A DNA stretch of 64,000 nucleotides, from contig NC_052158.1 in assembly GCF_902713615.1 (NCBI RefSeq), positions 49,515,531-49,579,530 of the forward strand, read 5' to 3'. The stretch comes from Scyliorhinus canicula. Its lineage: Eukaryota. This document shows, piece by piece, positions 3,631-50,510 of the stretch (its first letter is position 1; each line of letters opens with the position of its first letter). The notes under the pieces were generated by a model. The model was given only the letters and a program-made list of their open reading frames with translations. It did no database searches and was not told the origin of the DNA. The position numbers were made by a program, and so were the translations under genes.

Positions 3631-4699
3631 TGTTTATTTCTTTTGTTCCGTTTACTTTTATTTTAGGTCAGTGGACCCATAATCGGGATGAGTCTTTAAG
3701 CAGATGACTCAGTTCAACCAGTCTGCTTGTCAGAATATTGTGTTCCCAGGTTTTGTTTTTGGAGAGCAGAGGCAGACTCCTTGGCACGGGGTGATTCTTA
3801 GGAACCTGTTTTGGAGGAAGTTGGTTCGAATGCTTAAGTGGCACCGGTGGGTTGGCCAGGGACAGTGTTCTGTCTGACAACGATCAGTGATTGGTTCCTG
3901 TGTGATGCTTTCTGAGAGAACTGGTGAGAGGTATTTAGACCTTGGAAATGAAAGGAATGCTGTCTCTCTCCTACTGCTGAAATGAAAGAACTGCTCTATT
4001 GTTCTCAAGCCACTGAGTGCCTGGCACATCTTTGCTGTGAACTTGAAATGATGCAGAGTCTGCAGAGAAGGTAGACAACTTTGCCAGAAAAGTACCAAAA
4101 CAAAAGCTGTACTGACTAGAATTCATCCCAGCGAATCAAAATGTTTCATCCCTTTATTTTATTAATATTGTATTTATGTTTCCACCACAGATTTCCCCTC
4201 TGTTGTTTGTCTGTGCTTGTGTGTGGAGAGTGGGGGTAGTTGGGAAGGGGGAGTTTTGGAAAGGGATATTCGATAGTTAGTTACATTTTCTATCTTTTTA
4301 ATTATAAAAGGTTACTTGTGTGAAAGGTACAAACCTGGTGACTAGTTTGTTGGGTTCAGCCAAGAACATAGAACATAGAACAGTACAGCACAGAACAGGC
4401 CCTTCGGCCCTCGATGTTGTGCCGAACAATGATCACCCTACTTAAACCCACGTAACCCGTATACCCATAACCCAACAATCCCCCTATTAACCTTACACTA
4501 TGGGCAATTTAGCATGGCCAATCCACCTAACCCGCACATCTTTGGACTGTGGGAGGAAACCGGAGCACCCGGAGGAAACCCACGCACACACGGGGAGGAC
4601 CTCGGGTATTTTAAATAAAATCAAATTTTACCTGTGTTGCGCCTCCAGATGAAGTGAGGCTGGAATTGAGCCTGCACTACCCAGAGTGTGCTGATAACA
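3631..4699. mobile_element. Probable solo LTR with an HE1 insertion (4364-4600, minus)
   Basis: Non-coding ~700 bp ending ...GATAACA, LTR-like composition; no TSD verified. Confidence 0.35.
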
Positions 4700-4794
4700 G
4701 AAGCATAAAAAACACTGCCAGAAATTAATGGGACTAAAAAAACATTGCAGAGTATTTACAACACAGGATTAGGAAGATGGTGTATGTGTGTAAT

Positions 4795-4904
4795 AGAACA
4801 TAGGACATTACAGCGCAGTACAGGCCCTTCGACCCACGATGTTGTACCGTCCTGTGAAACCCTTCTAAAGTCCCTCTACACTATTCCCTTATCGTCCATA
4901 TGCC
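4795..4904 (-). mobile_element. CR1/HER1 LINE 3' end (left part, split by ERV)
   Basis: Joined to 13463 onward, it restores the reading frame ...AFKWSLDRHMDDKGIV-stop, followed by the TTCTATG-like tail. Confidence 0.85.
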
Positions 4905-5480
4905 TGTGGTATTGTGTGAAGCAAATAATGGCATGATGGGAAAACTAGTCAAGTCTTCTTGGTACAATTGAATTTAAACCTAAGGCACAGATACAAACAG
5001 CCGAGGTCAACCAAGAACTGGCTGACTCTAACACTCAGATAAGACGCGTTCGTCATGAGACCAGAGGAGTCTAAATATATACGATAAGCTAAAAAACTGT
5101 CTCTGCCTGTATGTAAACAAGTTTGTCCAGTTCTTAAAACAAAGACAAGATAATGATATGAAACTCAAGTCCCCTAAAGGTCCGCAAGGTGACGCCATTG
5201 TAACGATTATTACTTATGTTTTACTTTCGATCAAATTCCTGACCAAGCTGTATTCATGTTATCTTGATCCTATAATGTATAAGAATCGCCTTCTTTTCTG
5301 TACTATCGCAGACTTGGGACGGACTCCGCAGTTTGTAATTGACTGCCTTCCGATCCAAGTATCAGCCATTTTCTGCTAGCAGTTCTAATTAGTGAATAAA
5401 GTTCAGTTTTGCTTATCTAATGAATGCTGTTTGAATTTCTCTATCACAGTCAAGACGCGGGGAAAATATAAAATACAACA
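4905..5480 (+). repeat. 5' LTR (576 bp)
   Basis: TGTGGTATT...AATACAACA imperfect terminal inverted repeat; TATA-like sequence at ~5271-5284, AATAAA at 5395; direct repeat of 12887-13462. Confidence 0.97.
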
Positions 5481-5482
5481 TT

Positions 5483-5494
5483 TGGCGCTGCGAG
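5483..5494 (+). promoter_or_regulatory. Primer binding site, tRNA-Ser-like
   Basis: CA-TT-TGGCGCTGCGAG immediately after the LTR; one mismatch from the complement of vertebrate tRNA-Ser(CGA/UGA) 3' ends over 12 nt. Confidence 0.65.
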
Positions 5495-5585
5495 AAAAAA
5501 TCCAATATCCTGAAGTGAGCTTCCATGAGGGACTGAGAAAAAATGATCAAAGCCATGACCGGAGTAAAGAGACGGACGCCGGCAC

Positions 5586-5594
5586 AAGGTAAGA
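5586..5594 (+). promoter_or_regulatory. Candidate retroviral major splice donor
   Basis: AAG/GTAAGA consensus in the leader; a matching acceptor TTTCTTCTCACAG/ lies at 11470, upstream of env. Confidence 0.55.
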
Positions 5595-5723
5595 TTGACC
5601 TTGGTCTCTCTCTCTCTCGGATCTGTGCTGCGACCCCTCATCCCTGACGGAAGTAACTAAACAGGTGACGGTTCTCGAATCTAAATTTGACTGTGAGTAC
5701 ATTTTTTTTGTGTAATTAGCCGG

Positions 5724-5976
5724 AGGTCAGGGACCTTGTTGATCTCGTTTTTCATCCGCATCAGATTTATACAGGCTGTCAATAAATTTGGGTCCGGGAC
5801 CCTTTGATTAAGTTTTGGGGTCAGGGACCCTCTCAGTAATTTTTTGGGGTCAGGGACCCTGTCAATAATTTTTTGGGGTCAGGGACCCTCTCAGTAATTT
5901 TTTGGGGTCAGGGACCCTGTCAATAAGTTTTCTGGTCAGGGACCCTGTCAGTAATTTTTTGGGGTCAAGGACCCTC
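5724..5976 (+). repeat. Tandem 29-bp hairpin repeats in the ERV leader
   Basis: Eight GGGTC-AGG-GACCC-type inverted repeats, six at ~29-bp period. Confidence 0.9.
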
Positions 5977-6039
5977 CAATTTGATTTGGTACCAGAAATT
6001 TTGTTTGAGCGTTTTTTTTGCCTGTGGCACATTTTACTG

Positions 6040-8000
6040 ACATTATGCGACAAACTTTAGACAAAACTAGCGGCAACTCCCCTCTATTTTTCATGTGTTT
6101 AGAAACCTCTTCTCAAGAACGTAATATTCGAAGATTGGCTGCAGCGCTGCTTTAAACAATAAATTAGGTAACAATATCTGGCCACTGGGTTACACAGGGA
6201 TTTTGGAACTTTGACAATAGCATTGATGCAGGAAAAAAAAGCAATCTGGAAAAAAAAAATGCCGGTTTCAAATTGTTTAATTTTACAGTGGAAAAAAAAA
6301 CAGTTCACTTAACGCAACGAACAATCACAATGAGTTGGAGAGATAAAGCCCGCAAAAGAGATATTAATGAGTGTGTGAACGGTAAAGCGAAAAATTGGGA
6401 GACTTTAAAATTGTAATGTGAGCTTTGGTATGGAAAACAGTCAAAATGATAAAAAGCAATTCGGCAATAAGAAACCTCCTCTCACCAGACAGATAGGGCT
6501 AGCTCGTAAGATTATAGGAAAGGAGGATCCTCCCAGTTGCTCTGGCATGCCGATGTTCCCATATTCAAGCGATACGGAAGACAAGGAGAATTTGAACCCT
6601 GGACCCCACCCTCATTTTGCGCTCCCCGATTTTACAATTCCACTTTCCTAAGTCCTGACTCCCACTTCTGATCCCATTACCAATGAAACTCCTGCTAACG
6701 TATCCCCCTTAGCGACACGCACTCGGTCACAGACGCAAGCTGTAAATATCGAACAACCCTTCTCTACGGAAAACATGATAATTGACTAAAAGGTATTGAT
6801 TAAAAGATCCACAATAAGGAAATTATAGAAGTGAAGTTAATAAGTTATCAATTTAGAAGCATGCTGGCAATAATGACTAAAGTTTAACATTGCTTTTGAA
6901 TGAAATTTAGTAGATCAGATGATGTTAACTAACTACTGCTTGGAATGTTGTACTGGCCTTATTATGATAACAAGTGGTTCTTCTGAAGGAGAACAAAATG
7001 TGTACTCGAATTGTTTTAAAACTAATGGCAAAACATTCATATTTCCTCTTGCAAATGTTCCCAAAGTTGTTCAGTTCACACTATATCAGTTTAAAAGAAA
7101 GTAACTTTACGAATAAGAGTAATTGAAATATGAATAAGTTTTTAGATTGCGTGAAAAGACGTAAATGGCATCACGCCAAGTTCTCCGCCCCTTAGATTCT
7201 GCAGGAAACATTAACCATTTCAACAGACAGTTGGTCTTTTTTGAATTGACAAAAAAATAATACTTCTCAGAGAACAGCTAATGCCTCTAAAATTAATCAG
7301 TGCAAATTGACTTAAATTGAATAACACAGATAAAGTTTTCGAAAGAGAATGAAAAATTTTTGTTCAAAATTTGTCCGCAAGGACAAGGGCTGAATCCAAG
7401 AAAGAGAAAGAGAGACAGCGGAAGAGATTGAAGGAGAGAGAGAGAGCCAGCGACAAGAGACAGGAACTGTTAGAGAGAGCGAAAGAGAGCGAGTCAGGGA
7501 GAGGCAGAGATGGAGTGGTAGGCAGATAAAGAGAAAGAGCAACAAGAGTTCCAAAGACAGACAGAGTTATGTAGAGAGGGAGAGAGATAGATAAGAGAGA
7601 GAGGGAAAGAATTCATATTTCATTTTTCAGACTTTGACTTTAAAAATTATGTTTCAAGCTGTGATGATTTGAAAGAGGTAAAGAGATATCGATGCCAACA
7701 TGGTCCTTGTTATTACTTGAAACCTTCGCGATAAAAGGTTCCCGTTAACTTTGTAAGGCGGGTGGCATAGAATCTTTACGGTGTCACCTTCGAGCTGTTA
7801 ATTGGTTTGTACGGAGCGCGATTACTCCGTGATTTAAATTATAATCTCCTGCAGATGCGGATAACTCTGCTTAATAACACATAAACAGGGCAAAAAGCGT
7901 GCGGACCCTGACATAAAACATCACACACGTAATTTCCTTAATCAATTGTTAAAATTGTAATCGGAAGGACCATCTGGCATCAGACAAAGTGTGCAATGGG
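6040..8000 (+). pseudogene. gag: Heavily decayed gag
   Basis: No long ORF; remnants: MA-like NSPLFFMC...WPLG (~6075-6190), VSPLATRTRSQT (~6700), zinc knuckle C*NCNRKDHLASD (7947). Confidence 0.6.
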
Positions 8001-8299
8001 TAAAACTTTAGATACAACTTTTTAAAATGGCAGCGTACTGCAAACGCTGGGTGAACAACTAAAGACCTATCAACAGTAATAGAAGCTCAACAAGTGATTT
8101 AGGAAAATAATAGGGGGTCAACTGCTAAAAAGTTAGTTGCTCTATGGAGGGAATATTGTCCAAAATTGAAGGATGCCTCCTTGTTAGCCAGCTGGCAGGA
8201 TAAAGAATTAAAATTGGGTATGGAATTGACAGGTCTTGAAAACGGAATGCGCATATGGAAAAGAACCAAGTTAGGCTATCCACCTTGATTAGAAAGTTG

Positions 8300-11200
8300 C
8301 TGATTAGACACTGCAAATTCGGAGCGGTAATACAGTGCATTGATAATGGTATGTTTATAGAACTGTCTCAAATACGAGGTCACCAGCTGCAGAATTTAAT
8401 AACTTCTGTGCCTGCGCCTGATTGCTCTGTGTTCTATGCTGGCAGCTAACGTTAACCCTGAGTACCACTGTTTAAAACACCCGATATAGTCCAGATGAGA
8501 GAATATAGTGACCCAAGCCTTGATAACGGCATTACTATATCACCTATCCCGCAGGCCCATCTTCGAAATTTACCCCTATTCACTACTCCACAGTGGTGGT
8601 CGATTGATTTTGATCCCTCACACTTTTCACCTCCCTTAGATATTCCCAATCCACATGTCACTCTTTGCTACGATCATACAGTAACCTCGCCCGATTTGGA
8701 GAGCATTTACCAAGACAAAAAAAGGGTCTGCCTTTCTTGTCGATTTACCCCACAGCCTATGGCATCAGTCGAGACTTGTATCACCCCACGTGACCCTTTC
8801 TGTCAACGAAGGCTACAGTGCCAAGTCCTTGGGATTTCTGGCAGCTGCACTAAGAGGACAAGCTGATCCTTTCCTTAATGATAGTCAAACCCTACCCGCA
8901 GGCACTTTAGAATATTTTAAACGCCCATTTGTCCACATTGGCACACTGCACCATCATCATTCAACCCAATCTACGACTCCTGAACTACCCACAGATTTAT
9001 GGGCAGCCTCCAAACACGAAGTTGGTCTCACTAATGTCCCTCCTGTTGTTATTAGAGTCAAACCTGATATGCCCTTGCCCTCTATTTCACAGTACCCTTT
9101 GCGGCCCGAGGCTGAAGAAGGAGTCTCGGTCATGATTCATTCGTTCCTTCAACAGGAAATTCTGATACCGTGCCAATCGCCCTGTAACACCCCGATTCTT
9201 CCACTTCTTAAGATAGGAAGACCATCCGAATGGCGTTTAGTCCAAGACCTCCGGCTTATTAATCAGATAGTTGAACCCTTACATCCTATTGTCCCAAATC
9301 CAGCGACAATCCTTAGCAATGTCCCACCGGAAGCGACTATTTTTACCCTTGTTGATTTGCAACATGCCTTTTTTGCGATACCCCTCGCCCCTGAATCACA
9401 GTATTTGTTTGCCTTTACATTTAAGGGGACACAATACACTTGGACTAGACTCCCACAGGGCTTCATTCATTCTCCAACCCTTTTCTCACAGGCATTGCAC
9501 TCCCAGTTAGCGACATTAGCACCTCCTGGTGGCTCCACCATCATTCAATATGTTGATGACTTACTCCTTGCCAGCCCTGATTTCATCGCTAAAGAATTAA
9601 CTCCGTACTCCTCTCAAAATGCTCCTCTTAAGTTTGAACTACCTGATTCAGCAAAGCAATCTTTTATTACCCTGAAAAATGCCCTGGCTACCGCCCCAGC
9701 ACACAACCTATGTATGACAGACCTTTTCACCCAAATTCTTACTGCTGTCCATTTGTTAGTCCAGGCAGCCTCTAATCTAACCCTTCACCAGCAAGTACAA
9801 GTGCATACTTCACATTCTATCGTGGCTCTCCTAACGTCTCAACAAACCCAGCATCTGACTCAAGCGCGATTGAGCCGCTATGAGATTTCACTATTGCAAA
9901 ACCCCTACCTCTCTTTTCATTATTGTTCAACCTTAAATCCTGCCGTGTTCCTCGAATAGCCCCCCGATAACCTTAACCACCACACGATTGTTTACTTCGG
10001 AATCACTTCCTTACTGCACCTCGCCCGGATTTAACAGACAGGCCTATTGATAATCCATATCTAATTTTTTGTGTTGATGGCAGTTCTTCCATTTCCCCAT
10101 TTGGTGTCCCACAGTCGGGATATGCCGTGGTAACAGACACTGACGTGCAACAAGCAGCAGCCTTCCAGACCCCTGTCTCTGCACAACAAGCCGAGCTATT
10201 CGCCCTTACTCAAGCATGTATTTTGGCCACAGACAAAAGTACTAATGTTTACACTGATTCTAGATATGCCTTTGGCGTGACCCATGATTTCGGCCGCCCC
10301 TGGCAACAGCGAGGTTTTCTCACCTCTGTGGGAACTCCCATTCAAAATGCACTTTGGGTTAAAAATCTCCTCGATGCTATTCAGCTTCCCCGTCAATTGG
10401 CAGTTATTAAATGCATTGCGCACACGAAGGGTGACACTCCTGTTCAATTAGGAAATACCCGTGCTGATTCAGCTGCTAAAACTGCAGCTTCATCAACCTC
10501 TTTAATTGTTCCCAGTGGGCTAATCAGGCTCTAAACCAGGTACCTGCATTACGGACGAAGGGCATGCCAGAGATAGCTGAAGTTCGAAAATTTGCAGAGG
10601 GACGCCTCTGATTCTGAGTGAACACTATGGAAGTCAATGAGGTGTTCGCACTCCTTGACACGAGACCTCTGGCTGACTCCAGTTGGTCAAGTTTGTATTC
10701 TGAATTCTTTATTGCCGTTACTTGTTAATTATTTGCATTCTTGTACCCATCTTGGTAAGGAGGGAGTGGTACAGATACTCCTAAAAACTTGGTGGCACCC
10801 AGATTTGAATACAGCAGCGCAAACGCGGCTGGATCGATGCGTCATTTGCATGAAACATAATAAGGGTAAAGGTATTAAATGCCCTCCGGGACCACCCCCT
10901 TGCCAGATGATCCTTTTGCTTGTATACAGCTTGATTTTATCGAATTGCCAAAAGCACAGTGCTATAAATATTGTTTAGTAATAATTGATGTGTTTAGTAA
11001 ATGGATTGAAGCCTTCCCCACCACTAATTGTATGGCACATACAGTAGTGAAGTTGTTGTTAACGGAAGTCATGGTGAGCTCAGACAATGGACCACATTTT
11101 GTAGCTCGGTTCAATACTGAATTGTGCAAAGCACTTGTAATTAAACAGCAACTGCACTGTGCGTATCACCCGCAGGCAGCAGGAATTCTGGAAAGAGCCA

Positions 11201-11715
11201 ACGGGACTTTAAAAGAAAAATTATCTAAATTAACTGAAGAAACTGGATTAAATTGGCTAAAAGTATAACCCTTGGCACTGTTTCACATGCGAGTGACTCC
11301 CCATTCGCGGACCGGACTGTCAGCTGCAGAGATAGTCTATGGTCGGCCAATGAGGACTCCCTGGGATGCCCATGAAAAACCCCTAGAGGGAGTAGACCTC
11401 CATGTGATGGGGGAACAAATGCAGAACTATTTGAATCAATTAACACTTTCTTTGAAGTTTCTTCTCACAGGTAAAACAGATACATCTACCAGTAATGACA
11501 GGGACAGCCGTCCCTCGATATCCAGTGGTCAAACCCGGAGACCTCGTGTTGGTAGAAAAAACTGGGACAGAAAGAAACTAGGACAACGCTGGAGCGGACC
11601 CTTCCTCGTATTACTGACGACGCCAACTTCGGTCAAACTTGAAGGACGTTCAAGTTAGATACATCTATCCGATTGCAAGAAGATAGTCTCCAACCCAGAC
11701 GAGAACACAGGATGA
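8300..11715 (+). pseudogene. pol: pro-pol pseudogene: protease C-terminal remnant, 2H domain, RT, RNase H, integrase
   Basis: CKFGAVIQC; two PHVTL motifs; LVQDLR, DLQHAFF, LPQGF, YVDD; VDGSS, SAQQAEL, YTDSRY; HHCC, DFIEL, SDNGPHF, ERANGTLK; frameshifts, stops and internal deletions. Confidence 0.95.
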
Positions 11716-12855
11716 AGATCTTCAGTATAATTTTTGGACTTTCTGGACTACTTAGCCTTGATGGCCACTCGGTAGTAAAAAAAACGAACTAAACGAGACC
11801 TGCCATCCAATACCTATTTACATATGTCATATCTTTACGCTGAAAAATTGAATATTAGCAAGTGTTGGGTTTGCACCCACATCCTCGTCCAGTCAAGGGA
11901 AGGAATACCTCTCCAATCTCTCCCCCTTCATACCGCAGAAACAGTTGAATGGATTTTACGACAAAATCAAACAGGCATCAGGGGAGATTGGAGGAATATG
12001 AAAATATGGAAGTCTGCTGGCTATGACATGACTAAATTTTCAGCTTCATATCAACCTAACTATAATCATGCCCTAACTCCACCCTCCCTCACTGTCCACT
12101 CATATAATGTTCAAGGTTCCGTATGTTTTAATAAATCAGAGAAAGGAAAGTTAATGGGGCAAAGTAGGTGCAACCTACCAATATAATCCCCTGGATGACA
12201 TCAGCTGATGATTTTACAGCCTACAATGGAACCTATTTCATATGTGGCACTAAAGCATATCCGTGGCTCCCCATGGATTGGACAGGATCCTGCTTTTTGG
12301 GATATGTCATACCCCAAATGCATCATCGACCCACCCTTAAGCACTCCCCCTCACGAGCAAAAAGAACAATTTCTAAAACGGCACGGGCAAGGCATGAACG
12401 AACTGATCTACATGGCCTCAGCATTGGAACATCTGGCAAACGTAATGGCAACAGAAGCCAGGGACACTGGACAGGCACTGGCCGAGGTCTCAGCTGAGCT
12501 AGTGGCTGTCCGGACCGTGGCATTACAAAATCGACTGGCTTTGGATTATCTGTTAGCCTCGCAGGGAGGAACGTGCGCTATCATAGGCCAAGAGTGCTGT
12601 ACTTACATTCCAGATGGCTCTGAAAATATCACTAACCTGGCCGACCATATTAAGAGACAGGCTGCTCAAATTCAAGAAATTGGCAGTGAATTTCACGACT
12701 ATAACCCGCCGGGTTGGCTAGGATGGTTGGGTCATGGATTATTTGACTGGATCTTTAAGGCCTTTCTTCTACTGCTACTAATACTACTAGGGATAGGATT
12801 GCTTGCCTGCTTGTGTAAATGCATTTTCAAACGAATCATGGATATACCTATTTAG
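11712..12855 (+). pseudogene. env: Gamma-type envelope, frameshifted
   Basis: Signal peptide MKIFSIIFGLSGLL, CWVC, RAKR cleavage site, LQNRLALDYLLASQGGTC-AIIGQECC, hydrophobic TM anchor. Confidence 0.95.
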
Positions 12856-12874
12856 CTGGTTGTCATGATATGAC

Positions 12875-12886
12875 AAAAGGGGGGAG
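12875..12886 (+). promoter_or_regulatory. Polypurine tract
   Basis: AAAAGGGGGGAG directly before the 3' LTR TG. Confidence 0.9.
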
Positions 12887-13462
12887 TGTGGTATTGTGTG
12901 AAGCAAATAATGGCATGATGGGAAAACTAGTCAAGTCTTCTTGGTACAATTGAATTTAAACCTAAGGCACAGATACAAACAGCCGAGGTCAACCAAGAAC
13001 TGGCTGACTCTAACACTCAGATAAGACGCGTTCGTCATGAGACCAGAGGAGTCTAAATATATACGATAAGCTAAAAAACTGTCTCTGCCTGTATGTAAAC
13101 AAGTTTGTCCAGTTCTTAAAACAAAGACAAGATAATGATATGAAACTCAAGTCCCCTAAAGGTCCGCAAGGTGACGCCATTGTAACGATTATTACTTATG
13201 TTTTACTTTCGATCAAATTCCTGACCAAGCTGTATTCATGTTATCTTGATCCTATAATGTATAAGAATCGCCTTCTTTTCTGTACTATCGCAGACTTGGG
13301 ACGGACTCCGCAGTTTGTAATTGACTGCCTTCCGATCCAAGTATCAGCCATTTTCTGCTAGCAGTTCTAATTAGTGAATAAAGTTCAGTTTTGCTTATCT
13401 AATGAATGCTGTTTGAATTTCTCTATCACAGTCAAGACGCGGGGAAAATATAAAATACAACA
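12887..13462 (+). repeat. 3' LTR (576 bp)
   Basis: No difference from 4905-5480 found by eye. Confidence 0.97.
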
Positions 13463-14022
13463 CCTATCCAATGACCATTTGAATGCATTTAGTGTTGGTG
13501 AGTCTACTACTGTTGCAGGCACGGCATTCCACGCTCCTACTACTCTGAGTAAAGAACCTGCCTCTGACATCTGTCCTATATCTATCTCCCCTCAATTTAA
13601 AGCTATGTCCCCTCGTGCTGGACGTCACCACCCGAGGAAAAAGGCTCTCGATGTCCACCCTATCTAATCCTCTGATCATCTTGTATGCCTCAATTAAGTC
13701 ACCTCTTAACCTTCTTCTCTCTAACGAAAATAGCCTCAAGTCCTTCAGCCTTTCCTCATATGATCTTCCCTCCATACCAGGCAACATTCTTGTAAATCTC
13801 CTCTGTACCCTTTCCGATGCTTTCACATCCTTCCAATAATGTGGTGACCAGAACTGTACACAATACTCCAAATGCGGCCGCACCAGAGTTTTGTACAACT
13901 GCAACATGACCTCATGGCTCCGAAACTCAATTCCTCTACCAATAAAAGCTAACACACCATACAGCTTCTTAACAACCCTCTCAACCTGGGTGGCAACTTT
14001 CAGGGATCTATGGACATGGACA
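13463..14022 (-). mobile_element. CR1/HER1 LINE RT C-terminal fragment
   Basis: LYKTLVRPHLEYCVQFWSP, FSLERRRLRGDLIE, TRGHSFKL motifs. Confidence 0.92.
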
Positions 14023-14024
14023 CC

Positions 14025-14500
14025 GGAGTCATGGTGTTACTCCCTGCATCACAGTGATACTCGCCGAGTCACAGAATCACGCCCGAGTCACAGTGTTATT
14101 CCCCAAATCAGTGTTACTCTCCGAGTCACGGTGATACTCTCCGAGTCACAGGGTGACTCTCCGACTCACGGTGTTACTCCCCGAGTCATGGTGTGTTTCC
14201 CTGCGTCATGGTGATACTCTCCGAGTCACGGTGATAATTTTCGAGTCACAGTGTTACTCCCCGCACCACGGTGTTACTCCCTGAGTCACGGTGTTACTTC
14301 CTGAGTCACGTTACTTCCCGAGTCACTGTGTTACTCCCCAAGTCATGGTGGTACTCACCGAGTCACAAATCACTCCACGAGTCACAGTGCTACGGCCAAA
14401 TCACAGTGGTACTCCACAATTCTCAGAGCCACTGAATAAGTTACTCCCCAAGTCACAGTGTTACTTCCTGAGTTACAGTGTAAGCCCACAGGTCTGAGTC
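14025..14500 (+). repeat. 20-bp minisatellite (CCGAGTCACAGTGTTACTCC)n
   Basis: About 22 imperfect tandem units with a quasi-palindromic GAGTCAC-N-GTGTTACTC core. Confidence 0.85.
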
Positions 14501-18387: not shown

Positions 18388-19361
18388 TAATTGCACAAGC
18401 TTACAATGAAACTCATTCTGCTGTTGAGGATCTCATTGTCTCTTTGGAGATGCTGTTAAAGAATTTCATTGTTCCTCTGTAGGTGCTGCTGAAGAATCTC
18501 ATTGTTTCTTTGCAGATGCAGCTGAAGAATCTCATTAGTTCTTTGCAGATGATGCTGAAGAATCTCATTGTTTCTTTGCAGATGCTGCTGAAGAATCTCA
18601 TTGTTTCTTTGCAGATTCTGGCTAATGTTTGTCTTAAATTCAGTCAAAGTATGCCGAGGCAAGTTAGAAGTGGTCTGATAATTTACCATAGTTTCAACCT
18701 GTTCCTGATGTAAGCGCGCAAGTAGTTTCAGATCATCTTCCTTTTCCTCACCAGCAACATGGGTCTGATGTTGTCCGTGTGCTCGTGGAGACGGTGGAGC
18801 TTCTACTCCCAAAGCCGCAGGTTCCTCACCACCGGAAGGTTCGGAGTGACTTCCCTCCACCACAGCAGCCAGATCATCACAGACCTCCTCCTTCACACAG
18901 GCAACAATATTTAACTTTAACTCACCAACACTACCCTCCAAATGAGATGTCTTACCCTCCTGACACTCCTCTCCCTCCTCCACTGCAGCTGCCATGCCAC
19001 ATTGCTGTGAGGTATTCACCTCCATCCCTTCCTCATCAGCCCTTTCAGGAATCTCGGACACTGCTGCCAACTCTCCTCCATCACCATCTGATGTGTCCAG
19101 TGACACCTGTGTATCTGTCAAAGGAAGAAAATCACAGTTATTATCTTTTGTCACACAAATTAACTCTCCTCCTGATGGTTTAAACACTCAGCTGCTGACA
19201 TCACCTTCCCTCATCCCCATATCTGATCCACCATTGGTTATCGTGGGGGTGGAGAAGCCAAACAGCTTCCTTGTGAACTCCTCCTGTTCCGTCAGCTCCT
19301 TGCTGTACGGAACCCGCCGTCCAGTCAACAAGTGCTCCTGGGCGTTATGGGTCAGATTTAC
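18388..19361 (-). pseudogene. Harbinger Myb/SANT-protein-like C-terminal exon with 11-aa coiled-coil repeat
   Basis: Acceptor tttcttcctttAG at 19362-3; frame VNLTHNAQEHLLTGRRVPYSKELTEQEE resembles the K.AHN.RE...TGGG.P...LT..EE segment; acidic linker; (LQRNNEILQQH)n; two in-frame stops. Confidence 0.5.
18425..18620 (-). repeat. 33-bp coding tandem repeat (~6 copies)
   Basis: gaagaatctcattgtttctttgcagatgctgct units. Confidence 0.9.
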
Positions 19362-21189: not shown

Positions 21190-22300
21190 GGGAAGCAGGT
21201 GGCCCGCAGTGTGAACGCACTAATGTCTGAGTGAAAATATATTTTTTTTACACAGCAGTGTATTCAGAGGGCTGATTAGTCTGAGAATGATGTGTTGCAT
21301 ACCATAGATTTGAATGGTTTGCCTCCTGTGTGAATGTGTTGCTGTGTGCAGAGAGAAGGTGACTCAAGGAATGATTTGTCACAGACCATACATGTGAATA
21401 TGATAATGTACGCAAGAAGCTGATGTACGCGAGAATAGTTTGTCACGTACCTTGCATTGCAAGAGTTTCTCCCCTGTGTGAAGACGCTGGTGTTTACCGA
21501 GAGACGATGACTGTGCAAATGATTTGTCACACACCTCGCACGTAAATGGTTTCTCCCCCGTGTGAAGGCGTTGGTGTTCACGGAGGTTCCATAACTTTGA
21601 AAATGATTTGTCACACATTTTGCATGGGAAGGGTTTCTCCCCTGTGTGAATCCTCTGGTGTGATCGAAGAATGGTACTTCGACTGAAAGTCATCCCACAA
21701 ACATCACACGGGAAGGGTTTCTCTCCTGTGTGAAGGCGTTGGTGTTCACGGAGGTTTGATGAGAACGAGAATGATTTATCACAAATTTTGCACGTGAAGG
21801 GTTTCTCCCCTGTGTGGATGCGTTGGTGATTACGGAGGGTCGACGAGAATGAGAATGATTTGTCACAGATTTTGCAGGTGAAGGGTTTCTCCCCTGTGTG
21901 AATGCGTTGGTGTTGACGGAGACCTGATGACCATGTGAACGATTTGTCACACACGTCACACGTGAAGGGTTTCTCACCTGTGTGGTGGCGTTGGTCTTTA
22001 CGGAGGGTCGATGGAAACAAGAATGATTGGTCACACATTTTCCACATGAAGGGTTCCTCCCATGTGTGAAGGTACTGGTGTTGATGGAAGGTCGATGACT
22101 GCGAGAATGAATTGTCACACACCTCTTATAATCCTGTGCCTGACACACACCTCACAGTTGAACATCCTCTCACCTGTAGGAATGAGTCAGTGGTTCATGA
22201 GGTTAGATGAATGATTGAAACTCTCACCACACATGGAATCCACTCACACTTCTTTGCAGCCTCACACTGACCGATCGGCAACAGGTTCCACAACACTGAC
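21190..22300 (-). pseudogene. C2H2 ZNF gene/pseudogene; six intact fingers in ORF 21379-22122 flanked by degenerate fingers
   Basis: TGEKPF linkers, CX2CX12HX3H; broken fingers, stops and frameshifts on both sides. Confidence 0.8.
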
Positions 22301-23196: not shown

Positions 23197-23620
23197 CAGA
23201 AGGGAAATGCTTCCAATAAACACTCAATATCCAACACACAGCCAATCAAACAGCTCAGCACAAAGCACCGAGTAAACAGGTCTGTGAGCTGGATCTTCTG
23301 ACACAGCATAAGGGGCATTTCCACAGCTGATTGCCCACAGGATAGTCAGACTGCCTGAACATTAGTGTGGATATTGTGCAATGTAATGATTGTAAATTGT
23401 GCTCCTTCACTCACCATCTCCTGACTTGGTTTAGAGTCCCTACAGGAAGTGAAGCAGCTGTGGTAGAGGAAGAGGAGAGAATGGGCAGAGTGGGTGGGCT
23501 CTCTGATTGACGTCTCTCACAGACAATCCAAATATTTCTGCAGTAACAGGAGTTTCCTGAAGTTTGGGAAACTGACCGGGGAAACGGAGGCGGCTTTGAG
23601 CAGCAGCTCAGGTGGGGATT
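23197..23620 (-). promoter_or_regulatory. ZNF promoter/first-exon module, copy 1
   Basis: ATG/GTGAGT donor at 23415/23414; ETS-like ACAGGAAGTG, GGGTGGG box, CRE-like TGACGTC; repeated at 40105 and 49717. Confidence 0.7.
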
Positions 23621-26670: not shown

Positions 26671-28890
26671 TGGGAAGTCAGGGACATTCCAGTGTCCAGA
26701 ATGACAGTGTGCAGCAAGTGTCTCTGTGTGCAGTTACTCAAAATCCATGTTTAGAATCTGAAGCTTCAACTGGAGTCACTGTGGAGCATCTGCAAGAATG
26801 ATCTCTTCATGGAAAACATGTAGTGAGCTGGTCACACCTGAAAGAGGTGCAGCTCCCGTTTGCCCTTGCTGTCAGTTCTTGACTTCTTTAGAATTTTACA
26901 AAAGACAAACGTACTGACAGGGTATTAGGCTCAACCAGAAATATGTTTATTAACAAAAAAAACACAGAATGTTAATAAAATCCTCCACTGAAAAAAAATA
27001 TTTCTGCCCAAACCTTAACCAGTTCAACTCAAACCCCCTCAGGATTTGTTTGCTACTTTAAACTATCCTTAAACCTCAGCCCCACTATCCCTTGAATTTG
27101 GCTGATAAGTCCCTACATGGTTGGTTCTTCTGTGCATGCTGTAGAACTGTGAATCAGACTGACTCTTCTGGACTCTCCTTGGTGACTGCAGTGTTACACC
27201 CTACTGTCTTGGCATTATTACAAAACATTATCAAAAACTCGGTGCTCAGTACTTTTGTAGTCATTTAGTGTGGTTACTGCCTTGGTCCAAACAAACCAAT
27301 TCATCATGATGTTGCTTCGACTGAAACAATGGAGCCCATCCAGGTGTGGTGTCTCTGGCTCCCATACTCTATATGTGATAAAGTCCATTTCTCCTTGGGT
27401 GTAGTTTGTTTAATGTCAGTTATCTGATCAGCTCTGATGGTCTCCCAGTTTCTTCATTTGGATTATCTGATGATCACTGTTTTGTGTGTTTGAGATGTCT
27501 TTACACAGAATTGACTTGATCTCGGTGTTGACATGCTTTGTAGATGAACCCGACAGTACAGCCTGCCTCTGTGTGTTGAGGTTCGGCCTGATTGTTTGCC
27601 GTGTTTATGTCCATGAAGCTTTTGGGTTTTTAGTTCAAAAAAAGTGCAGCTGGAGGGGATTCCAATCCGACAAATCCCCCCCCCCCCCCCGTTTCCAATT
27701 TATTCCACATTAATAGTCCGAAAGAAAATGATCAAACCTGTACCAAAAAACTTTGTACTTTTTAATCTGTTCCAATTTTGTCTATCCCTACACATACATT
27801 GCACATATAATCTTTGAAATGTTCAGGTCTTCACTTCCAAATGATATCTCTGAGCAGATAGAAGTGGCATGAGAAAGATGCTTTGAAGTGAATTGTGGTC
27901 AGACTCGACCATCACTTTCTCTCTCCCAAACAGGTACTGTTGAAATGCTCACAAGCAAAGACAATATGTAGTCACTCTTTCTCTTTAAACAATAAGTACA
28001 TTTAAAGTATCCAATTATTTAAATTTAGAGTATCCAATTATTCTTTTTCCAATTAAGGAGCAATTTAGCATGGCTTATCCACCTAGCTTGCACATCTTTG
28101 GGTTGTGGGGACGAGACCCATGCAGACATGGGGAGAATGTGCAAACTCCACATGGACAGTGACCCAGGGCTGGGATTGAACCTGGGACCTCAGCCCGTGA
28201 GGCAGCAATGCTAACCACTGCGCCACCCTCACTCTTTCTTAATCTGTACATAGAATCGTTCAGTTTGTGTTAATGTTCTGATACAAACACAACTGGTTGT
28301 CCTTGCTGCATGAGGGTTGCTCCAAGACCTGTTTGACTGGCATCTCAGCTGACTCCATCATTGACACCATAGTACCTCAGCACTGGTGTTCTCGTCATTG
28401 GTGTCTGATGTGAGTGAAAGCTGCTTTTGGTTCTGTGACCCAACACATCCTTTGCAATGAGCTTGTGTAGAGATTCACACTGATGACAGAATGACTAAAA
28501 CTTGGGTTAGTTAGTTCCCATGTGGGTTCACTGATATTTCTAAAGGTCCAACAACTATGTGACGGTTTTATTACAGAATTCACACCGATACGGTTTCTCC
28601 CCTGTGTGAGTGTTGATGGACTAGGAGATACACTGACTGTGTGAATGTCTTATCACACACCTCACATCTGAATGGTTTCTCACCAGTGACAATCTGCTGG
28701 TGCTTCAGAAAGTCAGAGGATATGGTGAAAGCTCTCACATGAACATCGCATTGGAAGAATATTTGCACAATGTGATACCTTTGCTGTTCCAGGAGAGTTG
28801 AAAACATAATTGAAGCATTATCGCAAACCTCACAAATAAATGGTTACTACCCTGTGTGGATCTTCTTATGGAGCAGGAGGGTCAATGACT

Positions 28891-30702
28891 TTAAAAACGC
28901 TTTTTTGCCCACCTCACACATGGATGTTTTCTCCCCCTGTGAAAGCTTTGGTGTACATGGAGACTTGATGATGTAGAGAATGATTCATCACACACCTCAC
29001 ACTTGAATGGTTTCTCCCTCGTGTGAATGTCTTGGTGTCTGTGGAGGGTGGATGAAGTTGTGAATGATTTGTCGCACACCCCACACTTGAATGGTTTGTC
29101 CCCCGTGTGAATGCGTTGGTGTAAGAGGAGTTCCGATGATGACGAGAATGATTTGTCACACGCCTCACACTTGAATGGCTTTTCCCCTGTATGAATGCAC
29201 TGGTGCCTATAGAGAGTCGATGACTGAGAGAATGATTTGTCACACACCTCGCACTTGAACGGTTTATCCCCTGTGTGAATGCGTTTGTGTATACGGAGGT
29301 TCGATGACTGTGAGAATGATTTGTCACATACGTCGCATGTGAATGGTTTCTCCCCTGTGTGAATGCGTTGGTGTGTGCGGAGGTGCAGTGACCTCATAAA
29401 AGATTTGTCGCAGATCACACATGTGAATGGTTTCTCCCCTGTGTGAATGCGTTTGTGTATGCGAAGGTTCCCGGATAGTGAGAATGATTTGTGACACATC
29501 TCACATGTAAATGGTTTCTCTCCTGTGTGAGTGCGTTGGTGCACAACCAGGCTCGATTGCAGCATAAATGATTTGTCACACACATCGCAAATGAATGGTT
29601 TCTCCCCTGTGTGAATGCGTTGATGTACGAGGAGGCCCGATGCCAGCATATATGATTTGCCACACAAGTCACACGTGAATGGTTTTTCTCCTGTGTGAAT
29701 ACGTTGGTGTGTGCGGAGGTTCGATAACTGTGAGAATGATTTGTCACACATTTTGCATACAAATGGTTTTTCCCCGGTATGAATGCGTTCGTGTTTGTGG
29801 AGCGTTGATGACTCAGAGAATGATTTGTAACATGTTCGACACGTGAATGGTTTCTCCCCTGTGTGAATACGTTGATGTTTACAGAGAGTCGATAAATCAG
29901 AGAATGATTTGTCACACGTTTTGCACGTGAATGGTTTCTCCCCTGTGTGAATGCGCTCATGTACATGGAGACTCGATGACAATAAAAAGGATTTGTCACA
30001 CATTTTGCATGTGAATGGTTTTACTCCTGTGTGAATGCGTTGGTGTTTGCGGAGGTTCGATGAAGTTGTAAATGATTTGTCACATACCTCGCACGCAAAC
30101 GCTTTTTCCCCTGTGTGAACGGGCTGGTGTTTGTGCAGACTTGATAAATGGGAGAATGATTTGTCACACACTTTACATGTGAATGGTTTCTCCCCTGTGT
30201 GAATATTTTGGTGCGCACGGAGAGTTGATGCCAACAAGAAAGATTTTCCACACACTTGACACATGAATGGTTTTTCCCCTGTGTGAGTGCGTCGGTGTGT
30301 CCGAAGATTTGATGAATTTGTGAATGATTTGTTGCACACTTCACACGTGAAAGGTTTTTCCCCTGTGTGAGTGCGTTGGTGTGTGCGGAGGTTCGATGAC
30401 TGTGAGAATGATTTGTTACACACCTCACATGTGAATGGTTTCTTCCCTGTATGAATGCGTTGGTGTTTGCGGAGGTTCGAGGGATCGGTGAATGATTTGT
30501 CGCACAGCTCACATGCAAATGGTTTTTCCCCTGTGTGAACGGGCCGATGATTTTCCAGGCCCGATAATTGTGCAAAGCCCTTGTTGCACACCTCACATTT
30601 AAACATCTTCTCCCCAGTGTGGCTGCGTCTGTGAATCATTAGTTTCCTTTGGTGTGTGAAGGTTCGGTCACAGACCTCACACTTGAATTGTTTCTCTTCC
30701 AT
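28891..30702 (-). CDS. Tandem C2H2 zinc-finger protein, 21 fingers, 603 aa, no recognisable effector domain
   Basis: Uninterrupted ORF of 21 x 28-aa CX2CX12HX3H units with TGEKPF-type linkers; upstream acceptor ttttacAG at 31103-4; AATAAA (minus) at 28567-72. Confidence 0.92.
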   Translation of the reverse strand: MEEKQFKCEVCDRTFTHQRKLMIHRRSHTGEKMFKCEVCNKGFAQLSGLENHRPVHTGEKPFACELCDKSFTDPSNLRKHQRIHTGKKPFTCEVCNKSFSQSSNLRTHQRTHTGEKPFTCEVCNKSFTNSSNLRTHRRTHTGEKPFMCQVCGKSFLLASTLRAHQNIHTGEKPFTCKVCDKSFSHLSSLHKHQPVHTGEKAFACEVCDKSFTTSSNLRKHQRIHTGVKPFTCKMCDKSFLLSSSLHVHERIHTGEKPFTCKTCDKSFSDLSTLCKHQRIHTGEKPFTCRTCYKSFSESSTLHKHERIHTGEKPFVCKMCDKSFSQLSNLRTHQRIHTGEKPFTCDLCGKSYMLASGLLVHQRIHTGEKPFICDVCDKSFMLQSSLVVHQRTHTGEKPFTCEMCHKSFSLSGNLRIHKRIHTGEKPFTCVICDKSFMRSLHLRTHQRIHTGEKPFTCDVCDKSFSQSSNLRIHKRIHTGDKPFKCEVCDKSFSQSSTLYRHQCIHTGEKPFKCEACDKSFSSSSELLLHQRIHTGDKPFKCGVCDKSFTTSSTLHRHQDIHTREKPFKCEVCDESFSTSSSLHVHQSFHRGRKHPCVRWAKKRF

Positions 30703-48799: not shown

Positions 48800-50510
48800 C
48801 CTTTCTCCCTCTGTGTACCCGAACAGACACCTACTTGTGACAATAAAGATTAAATTAAAAACACAGGTAAGGACGTCAGATTTCCTTCCCGAAAGGACAT
48901 TAATGAATCTGATGGGTTTTTATGGCAATCGACAAAGGTGTAATGGTCACCATGACTGGACTAGCTTTTAAATCCACATTAGAAATTGAATTTAAATTTC
49001 ACCAACTGCTGTGGGGTGTTCTGAATCCAAGTCCTCAGAGCATTAACACAGGTACCTGGCATTATTAATCTAGTGGCTACACGACTGCCACCTCTGAATT
49101 AGAGTCTGTTCCACAACAAGCACCAGCCTGCAATTTCCCTGTGTGGTGATCAGCTACAAGTCCTTTCTTTTTCCTCACTTGACTATCACACACCCTCTAT
49201 TTCCAGCAGGGACACTGGATAGTGACCCAGAGCAGACAATGTAGCAACTTTCTTTCCTCCACCCATACCCCATCTTCCCACTGTGAGGATAGTGGAAAAA
49301 CCAGGTGGACAGACCATAAAACGGTCTACCAATACACTATGAGCTTGTGTTCTACTAGTGAAGACCAATTTTATCCTTCAAGTTAGTGTTTAATATAAAA
49401 TTTAATGGAGATTTTGACATTTCTTCACTTATTTTCCCAAATTTGAAGAAAACACACTGGGCAGGAAGTGCAAGACGCTAAGGAAAATATTGCTTCCTTG
49501 ATTGAAGGATTCTTCCTGGGAAATTAGATACAGTGCACTTAGACTGCACATCCCAAATTCAACTCTCACACACAAAACAATCAAATCCAACCCCAGGCTT
49601 CTTGAAAAGGCCGAGGCCTTAACGTAAAATCATTAAAGAAGACATTGAAATACCCCGATAATTCCCCTTCACCTCATATTCAGCAATGACCCATCACCAA
49701 AACTCAGCCTGTAAATCAGAAGGGAAATGCTTCCAATAAACACCCTCAATATCCAACACACAGCCAATCAAACAGCTCAGCACAAAGCACCGAGTAAACA
49801 GGTCTGTGAGCTGGATCTTCTCACACAGCATAAGGGGCATTTCCACAGCTGATTGCCCACAGGATAGTCAGACTGCCTGAACATTAGTGTGGATATTGTG
49901 CAATGTAATGATTGTAAATTCTGCTCCTTCACTCACCATCTCCTGACTTGGTTTTGAGTCCCTACAGGAAGTGAAGCAGCTGTGGTAGAGGAAGAGGAGA
50001 GAATGGGCAGAGTGGGTGGGCTCTCTGATTGACGTCTCTCACAGACAATCCAAATATTTCTGCAGTAACAGGAGTTTCCTGAAGTTTGGGAAACTGACCG
50101 GGGAAACGGAGGCGACTTTGAGCAGCAGATCAGGTGGGGATTTAAACTTGTCATTGTCCCATCTGAATAAAACCTCACTTTGACAGAGATTTCTAGTGTG
50201 GCAATAGCATTCCTCATCCTCGTGGCTTTCAAACTTGCATCAGTGTGGGTGGGATGTGTAGCCTTAGGTGTGTTTCACACGAGATCAGAAAAGGAAGGCA
50301 GTGGTAGGATGAGCACGTGCTCAGGAGAGAGGGACACTGGAGAGAGAGAGAGGGAGGCCTGAAACGGTTGAACGGAAAAGAGTGCATGAGGAGTTTGAGT
50401 CAGTGTTTGGGGAGAGACTGTTACCGAGGGAGTGGCCACAGTGACTTGTAGAGTTACGCTGTCACTCGCTGTAAACTGTGCTTGGGGACTTTCCTTGACT
50501 CGGAGATTAA
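48800..50510 (-). repeat. Segmental duplicate of ~39150-40900, including promoter module copy 3 (49717-50143; ATG/GTGAGT at 49937/49936)
   Basis: Colinear similarity starting at cctttctccctctgtgtacccgaacag. Confidence 0.85.

Follow-up and report, generated by a model that had tools for sequence, protein, structure and literature searches.

How can a provirus whose genes are destroyed be flanked by two identical long terminal repeats (LTRs)? This question is raised by an endogenous retrovirus (ERV) at positions 4905-13462 of a 64-kb stretch of Scyliorhinus canicula DNA, the whole of which was analysed and is called the window here. A preliminary description of the locus had proposed that an already decayed, helper-dependent ERV was copied recently. 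Our analysis makes it very likely that the family to which the provirus belongs is non-autonomous. That the provirus itself is a decayed member of this helper-dependent class I family, re-copied in trans, is the explanation we favour, although with distinctly less assurance.

Identical LTRs and conserved signals

A maximal exact repeat equates 4905-5480 with 12887-13462. It defines two 576-bp LTRs with 0 mismatches, exactly as the preliminary description had stated. Both LTR termini read TG...CA precisely, with two terminal bases removed in the way that integrase leaves them. The following signals frame the interior of the provirus:

4905-5480, plus strand: 5' LTR, defined by the exact repeat, with AATAAA at 5395
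5483-5494, plus strand: primer-binding-site (PBS)-like motif, 2 nt past the 5' LTR
5790-5976, plus strand: 29-bp leader repeat, 6.5 copies, with a short stem-loop; candidate packaging signal
12875-12886, plus strand: polypurine tract (PPT)
12887-13462, plus strand: 3' LTR, identical to the 5' LTR, defined by the exact repeat

The PBS-like motif may resemble the end of a serine tRNA. The leader repeat folds modestly better than shuffled sequences (z -2.3), and 4 of 200 shuffles folded equally well. An Rfam search of 4500-14000 gave no match.

Lesions in pol and env

Counted against intact relatives, pol and env contain at least 14 breaks. Their coding remnants are the following:

8685-9959, plus strand: reverse transcriptase (RT) core with YVDD, a 424-codon open frame, then two in-frame deletions (thumb and connection)
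9977-10534, plus strand: RNase H, in a different frame
10622-11700, plus strand: integrase in pieces (zinc-binding part, core with an 8-codon loss, C-terminal GPF motif), with several stops and frameshifts
11712-12858, plus strand: gamma-type env with three frameshifts and two deletions; transmembrane part with immunosuppressive-domain and CX6CC motifs

Comparison with the relatives P0001 and P0002 places a loss of about 91 codons directly after the YVDD stretch, in frame, which removes the thumb (993-1083 of P0001; about 9582-9592 of the window). A second in-frame loss of about 44 codons removes the connection. In the integrase, 8 residues are gone at about 11071. The env is frameshifted near 11777, 12180 and 12386, and the last two sites also carry losses of about 38 and 11 codons relative to P0121, its closest relative. 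The thumb, connection and integrase losses and the frameshifted env had been named in the preliminary description, and its anatomy was right. It overlooked a break early in pol at about 8710-8718, a deletion with a frameshift, and several stops and frameshifts between 9960 and 11660. In this interval, pol has a break near 9960-9983, a pair of indels near 10516 and 10586, frameshifts near 10890, 11463 and 11555, and stops at 10619, 11266 and 11656.

A multi-copy family without gag and protease

To place the provirus among its relatives, we drew on 20 public sequence runs of one organism from 7 studies; this organism may differ from the species of the window. Contigs of four of these runs (X1, X2, X5 and X9) were compared with 4600-12886, and individual differences, indels, joints and loose ends are discussed from the 40 of 286, 12 of 62, 15 of 18 and 24 of 677, respectively, that were listed. 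Contigs covered 30 of 30 bins in all four runs, which identifies a multi-copy family. A rough ratio of single-contig depths (270-890 versus 3-14 in X5 and X9) would put it at tens of copies.

Between 5990 and 8460, where gag and protease should lie, each frame contains 49-56 stops. High-depth contigs without gaps match this region almost exactly: 7813-8115 in X1 (1 difference), 7813-8049 (0), 8066-8301 (4) and 8306-8535 (2) in X2, and 7512-7676 (2) in X9. Each frame of the stretches so covered is interrupted by 2-10 stops. The pol break at 8710-8718 is spanned by a gapless X5 contig, which has a depth of 612. Since the same stop-ridden stretch and the same break recur in high-depth contigs, the loss of gag and protease and the early pol break are family-wide. 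Disabling lesions are thus shared across copies of the family, as the proposal of a non-autonomous lineage had implied.

5990-8310, plus strand: non-coding region at the position of gag and protease, common to the family; contains the third splice donor, after 6792

The preliminary description had called gag barely recognisable; it escaped every search that we ran. One frame of 6061-8499 had 0 matches among 1.84 billion representative proteins, Pfam gave 0 credible matches in three of three frames of the 5' region, and the best real domain score against 12 related Gag proteins was -3.1 bits, where controls reached 4.1. Translated searches (tblastn) with 120 and then 254 proteins found no match upstream of 8240, and the loci L001-L006 contributed none either. 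The label "gag" for 6000-8300 derives from its position and from motifs recognised by eye. In X2, the depth jumps in bins 7093-7646, with loose ends flanking 7260 and 7360, and this piece of the non-coding region seems common to another abundant sequence.

The family is also transcribed. Contigs of X2, alone among the four runs, contain GT-AG joints from donors after 5588, 5692 and 6792 to the acceptors 11457 and 11470. The joints of the first two donors reach depths of 145 and 53 and were absent from X1, X5 and X9. The third (GT at 6793), inside the region at the gag position, is joined to 11471 at depth 16.5 with a short side.

5588-5693, plus strand: two splice donors, after 5588 and after 5692 (GT at 5589 and 5693), joined to the env acceptor in X2
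11457-11471, plus strand: env splice acceptors (AG at 11457 and 11470)

We guess that X2 is an RNA run, which the GT-AG joints support. The family makes spliced env RNA, a statement about the family that is not ascribable to the window locus. The cis signals said earlier to be retained (PBS-like motif, PPT, splice sites used in X2, and a leader repeat with a modest fold) are all present. The unit number of the leader repeat varies, as an X1 contig lacks 5840-5900.

Outside the shared lesions, the copies diverge. The window copy has another letter than the main contigs at 181-221 of 8287 places in four of four runs, or about 2%. Likewise, a screen with sampled words found 47-53% of them in each of the 20 runs, and a share of 0.47-0.53 corresponds to a difference of 2.0-2.4%. 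We rejected this share as proof that the copy is missing from the sampled individuals, because contigs register presence only and lose rare variants, and the species may differ. Other copies have deletions of their own at 8871-9009 (X1, X5 and X9) and 9241-9498 (X2, X5 and X9, with short sides), a pattern that the copying of defective genomes in trans would produce. The stop-ridden 5' region is common to high-depth family contigs and most pol and env breaks are not, which agrees with the earlier proposal that gag decayed well before pol and env. The proposed check for shared lesions, made here on the contigs of four runs, succeeded for the gag-protease stretch and the 8710-8718 break. Most pol and env lesions are not the common state of the family, so a copied sub-lineage is not yet proven.

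Decay and insertion in time

With 0 mismatches in 1152 LTR bases, change since insertion is at most 0.26% (95% bound), or about 19 changes in the 7406-nt interior. The interior shows a difference of about 2% and five deletions of 8-91 codons. Either the decay is therefore older than the insertion, or later homogenisation made the LTRs identical. In a rate-free test, the chance of identical LTRs at 2% change is about 1e-10. The claim that decay came before insertion is upheld to this extent, namely unless homogenisation followed.

The claim that the insertion is recent is carried by the 0.26% bound but is weak in a shark. At 2.2e-10 per year, the rate assumed in PMC4422223, the bound (95%) corresponds to about 12 million years; at 7e-10 per generation, the rate measured in PMC10587355, it corresponds to 3.7 million generations. 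On the reading favoured here, the decay would be far older than the insertion, which could nevertheless date back millions of years. Six of 17 changes toward A/T among the 40 listed differences fall at CpG, where 13% would be expected (P 0.015). This enrichment suggests an earlier dormant phase in the germline.

The integration site

The provirus interrupts a long interspersed nuclear element (LINE) of the host, the empty form of which is provided by loose ends in 20 X5 contigs and 21 X9 contigs:

4793-4904, minus strand: 3' end of the host LINE in the left flank, with 8 similar places elsewhere in the window; its empty form runs on into the right flank
4903-4904, no strand: left copy of the target-site duplication CC (right copy 13463-13464), atypically short
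13463-14036, minus strand: remainder of the interrupted LINE, with 190 open codons of the end of ORF2

Comparison with the empty form yields a target-site duplication of 2 bp (CC); counting the first LTR base as host would lengthen it to 3 bp. Class I ERVs usually, though not constantly, leave a 4-bp duplication (PMC4299795), and this one locus departs from that pattern. A literature search on short target-site duplications found nothing. Two minisatellites lie downstream, a 20-bp one of about 20 copies at 14026-14415, which truncates the interrupted LINE, and a 33-bp one of about 6 copies at 18419-18620.

Mobilisation in trans and its alternatives

To rationalize identical LTRs around decayed genes, we propose three stages. 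First, the gag-protease part would have eroded beyond recognition long ago, and the family would have spread in that state; optionally, the pol-env of another ERV lineage could have been fused to an old defective 5' part, with a junction at about 8425-8510. By the rules of retroviral biology, a family that spread without gag and protease needed the Gag and Gag-Pol of a helper. Second, pol and env would have been without selection, and sub-lineages would have gained deletions, frameshifts and point changes through reverse transcription and germline residence. The diversity of the copies is observed; the mechanism is what we infer. Third, an already decayed member would have been transcribed from its LTR, packaged via the leader, reverse-transcribed and inserted into the LINE by helper enzymes. 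The reverse transcription of this last stage would have reset the LTRs to identity.

Several results weigh against this scheme. A helper with open gag was not found by protein, viral-contig, metagenome or Gag-protein searches. There were no relatives among viral contigs and 0 matches to the LTR pattern in metagenomes, and an RT alignment search returned 6 loci at only 46-54%. No second copy with any of the four large pol and env deletions downstream of 9500 came to light. At the integrase loss, an X1 contig of depth 428 retains the segment, and X5 and X9 contigs end at 11071. At the thumb loss, contigs end at 9592 in X1 (a weak case, with 3 letters left over) and in X9 (104 left over). In env, one X9 contig fits a copy that retains the first segment lost here. 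All seven listed small indels of pol and env are absent from some or all contigs in every run, from 100% of contigs near 10516 (all four runs) to only 8-47% near 11777. The decay of the window copy may be private to this locus. In addition, the LTR holds 0 of the 40 listed differences, where about 3 would be expected; the interval 12141-12886 also holds 0, so the ranking of differences may avoid regions of high depth. Finally, a fresh class I integration would be expected to leave a clean 4-bp duplication, and the flanks here repeat 2 bp.

The alternative that withstands these data best, although we consider it unlikely, is decay at the present site: an old provirus belonging to this non-autonomous family would have gathered its lesions where it now lies, and gene conversion, between its two LTRs or with another LTR of the family, would have removed the differences between them. 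This would account for the many pol and env lesions not seen in other copies, and the CpG-type decay and the irregular flank duplication fit a long residence. The window even offers a precedent, which likewise speaks against re-copying: paralogues 9.6 kb apart share an exact tract of 428 bp (40104-40531 = 49716-50143) within a 1.75-kb duplication whose remainder is 91% identical; in the tract core, identity with a third copy (about 23200-23600) reaches about 99%, against 80% outside it. Homogeneous tracts of such size and spacing thus occur in the window, whatever their cause. In the provirus, however, a conversion tract would have to span all 576 bp to both ends, over which a divergence of 2% per LTR predicts about 23 differences. 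A ratio of five large deletions to roughly 150 substitutions also seems too high for host-neutral decay and looks more like loss during reverse transcription. Selection may preserve the 428-bp core, in which a likely exon can be read by eye. As an observation in its own right, the tract resembles a short exon and the start of an intron on the minus strand, with conversion, selection or polishing as possible causes of its identity.

We regard it as improbable that the LTR identity is an artefact of assembly, in which repeat collapse or short-read polishing equalised the LTRs and some frameshifts are consensus errors. In line with an artefact, 53% is the highest share of the words found in any run, 4 of the 11 listed small indels touch a run of at least 4 bases against a background of 13%, and at the two LTR indel sites listed for X5 and X9 the LTR of the provirus carries the majority state; the 428-bp tract could share the same cause. 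Against an artefact, a host zinc-finger frame is open for 602 codons and pairs of short interspersed nuclear elements (SINEs) in the window stay at 94-97%. Large deletions with 2% substitutions are also unlike polishing errors, and the 5' decay is present in independent runs.

Least credible of all is entry without a helper integrase (recombination- or repair-driven insertion of fresh cDNA), or the origin of all extra lesions in one short error-prone replication run with no dormant phase: the 2-bp duplication and the deletion-rich pol and env would fit, but the exact TG...CA ends with two terminal bases removed as by integrase argue against the former and the CpG enrichment, which suggests a dormant phase, against the latter.

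A possible chimeric origin

Two stretches that resemble protease tails lie in tandem:

8312-8425, plus strand: protease-tail remnant, like that of teleost-, turtle- and sawshark-type ERVs
8510-8800, plus strand: end of a second, chondrichthyan-type protease tail and a domain with two HxT/S motifs, split by the family-shared break at ~8710-8718

The tail remnant at 8312-8425 is all that is left of the protease proper, and the 5' region has no Pfam protease match; the active site is lost, as had been reported. Protease tails could be located in 92 of 254 proteins, four of which are cognate, that is, from the chondrichthyan clade. The first tail scores at least 50 with 15 of 88 tails from outside this clade and with 0 of 4 from within it. 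The second (about 8510-8600) scores at least 50 with 3 of the 4 chondrichthyan-clade tails and with 0 of the 88 others. An X2 contig (8306-8535) spans the interval containing both tails, which makes the tandem arrangement a trait of the family. These tails hint at a recombinant origin with a junction at about 8425-8510, to which we would give even chances on this sequence comparison. A chimera, if real, would explain why a heavily eroded 5' part adjoins a well-kept pol-env. It counts against this idea that the number of cognate tails is as low as four and that the score of the second tail leans partly on a motif just behind the protease tail. A step in base composition near 8380 was dropped as evidence for a chimera, as the intact relative L001 has the same step.

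Two HxT/S motifs occupy 8546-8800, between protease and RT, and are present in the shark relatives P0001 and P0002 too. Judged by these motifs, the domain may be 2H-phosphoesterase-like; it has no match in Pfam or among solved structures (PDB). 2H domains occur in fish retroviruses (PMC9503650).

Classification and comparison with known systems

The provirus has the hallmarks of class I. Pfam recognises RT, RNase H, integrase pieces and TLV_coat (PF00429, E 1.2e-12); the last of these, with a CX6CC motif in frame 12199-12855, marks a gamma-type Env. The integrase ends in a GPF/Y motif (PF18697, E 1.3e-06, just under the cut-off), given as a class I feature in PMC4299795. The best matches and tree neighbours of the RT are class I-type Pol proteins of fish, reptiles and mammals, including WEHV1 and PERV. 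In a tree of 45 rows, from which none was excluded and which has no class II or III outgroup, the RT falls into a 12-row clade (support 100/99, with bootstrap not fully settled). The 10 other named rows of this clade are all cartilaginous fishes (sharks, rays and a chimaera), and the nearest row is from Mustelus (76% over 166 columns). Among the named Env matches, the best six are likewise all chondrichthyan. By whole-query BLAST, the closest proteins are at most 64% identical for Pol and at most 78% for Env. The closest env relative found, P0121, is a JGI/IMG protein from a contig of 4665 nt with an open 425-aa Env, 64-78% identical; it is probably host DNA in a metagenome.

Membership in the genus Epsilonretrovirus (WDSV/WEHV) was rejected, as WEHV1 lies outside the 12-row clade that contains the window RT. 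The provirus is epsilon-like in a loose sense only. Epsilonretroviruses carry accessory genes such as a retroviral cyclin. No accessory gene was matched by Pfam in the 5' region, where erosion may hide one.

A helper-dependent lifestyle of this sort is familiar from mammals. Among known systems, mouse VL30 is similar in being a non-autonomous LTR element with a stop-ridden, gag/pol-related interior, conserved PBS and PPT and many copies. Identical LTRs are found in 42 of 86 full-length VL30 copies (PMC4859993). In contrast to the shark family, the pol and env of which are well preserved and the env RNA of which is spliced, VL30 is without env (PMC4859993). Moreover, helper and polymorphism are known for VL30, whereas the shark family is known from sequence and contigs alone.

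CfERV-Fc1(a) is likewise class I, with shared disruptive mutations and young identical-LTR copies, and spread in canids by trans complementation (PMC6407205). Its gag is recognisable and its mutations are shared locus by locus, whereas sharing here is at contig level and limited to the 5' region and one pol break. RecKoRV, a recombinant of an old degraded retroelement with a younger virus that was remobilised (PMC6112702), provides a model for the tandem protease tails. There, young 5' and 3' ends surround an old core; here, the old part would be the 5' interior and the young part pol-env. Both parents of recKoRV are known.

Lineages II and III of the elephant-shark CmiERVs (PMC4422223) are, like other chondrichthyan epsilon-like ERVs, a comparison group, although CmiERV sequences are absent from our RT tree. 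Their LTR pairs differ by 2.4-3.3%, unlike the 0 found here. Invading ERVs (ERVi, PMC10435555) share the identical LTRs; their definition also calls for intact genes and polymorphism, and the shark provirus falls outside it by its broken genes. That study lists 37 host orders, none of them of cartilaginous fish, though 13 such genomes were screened and one catshark was among the candidate-tested species. A catshark genome paper describes LTR elements as declining in recent activity (PMC11979771). We found no description of a non-autonomous shark ERV family in literature searches, whose coverage left subscription papers and repeat databases outside.

The provirus probably extends the spread of ERVs by trans complementation beyond mammals, to the vertebrates that evolve most slowly, and it points to a family whose RNA is made and spliced at present. 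A caution goes with it: in sharks, a provirus with identical LTRs may be millions of years old, and local homogenisation can affect tracts of at least 400 bp.

A potential partner element

In three X2 contigs, the LTR begins identically but the sequence ahead of the PPT differs; X1 and X2 also contain a variant LTR that diverges after 4979. A sister family or the helper may share the LTR, and the element with the different sequence before the PPT may be a possible partner. It is conceivable, but quite doubtful, that a two-partner system is still active in the shark germline. Such a system would comprise the Gag-less recombinant family, with tens of copies and spliced env RNA, and a Gag-Pol partner that shares its LTR start, and would give rise to new polymorphic insertions with a short target-site duplication. 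If this were true, retroviral mobilisation would be ongoing in cartilaginous fishes, a group without an invading ERV among the host orders that PMC10435555 lists. If young polymorphic insertions are real, a replication-competent partner was recently present in sharks and would be missed by screens that require intact genes.

Other features of the window

Two arrays of C2H2 zinc fingers lie on the minus strand, at 21381-22184 and 28842-30699; the second has 602 open codons and 21 fingers. A tRNA-Lys called by ARAGORN at 37458-37531 on the minus strand adjoins SINE copies and is probably a SINE head. A long G-rich L1-like LINE, read by eye, extends over about 43500-48720 on the plus strand, with an endonuclease start near 44740, an RT motif near 46810 and G runs at 44504-44565.

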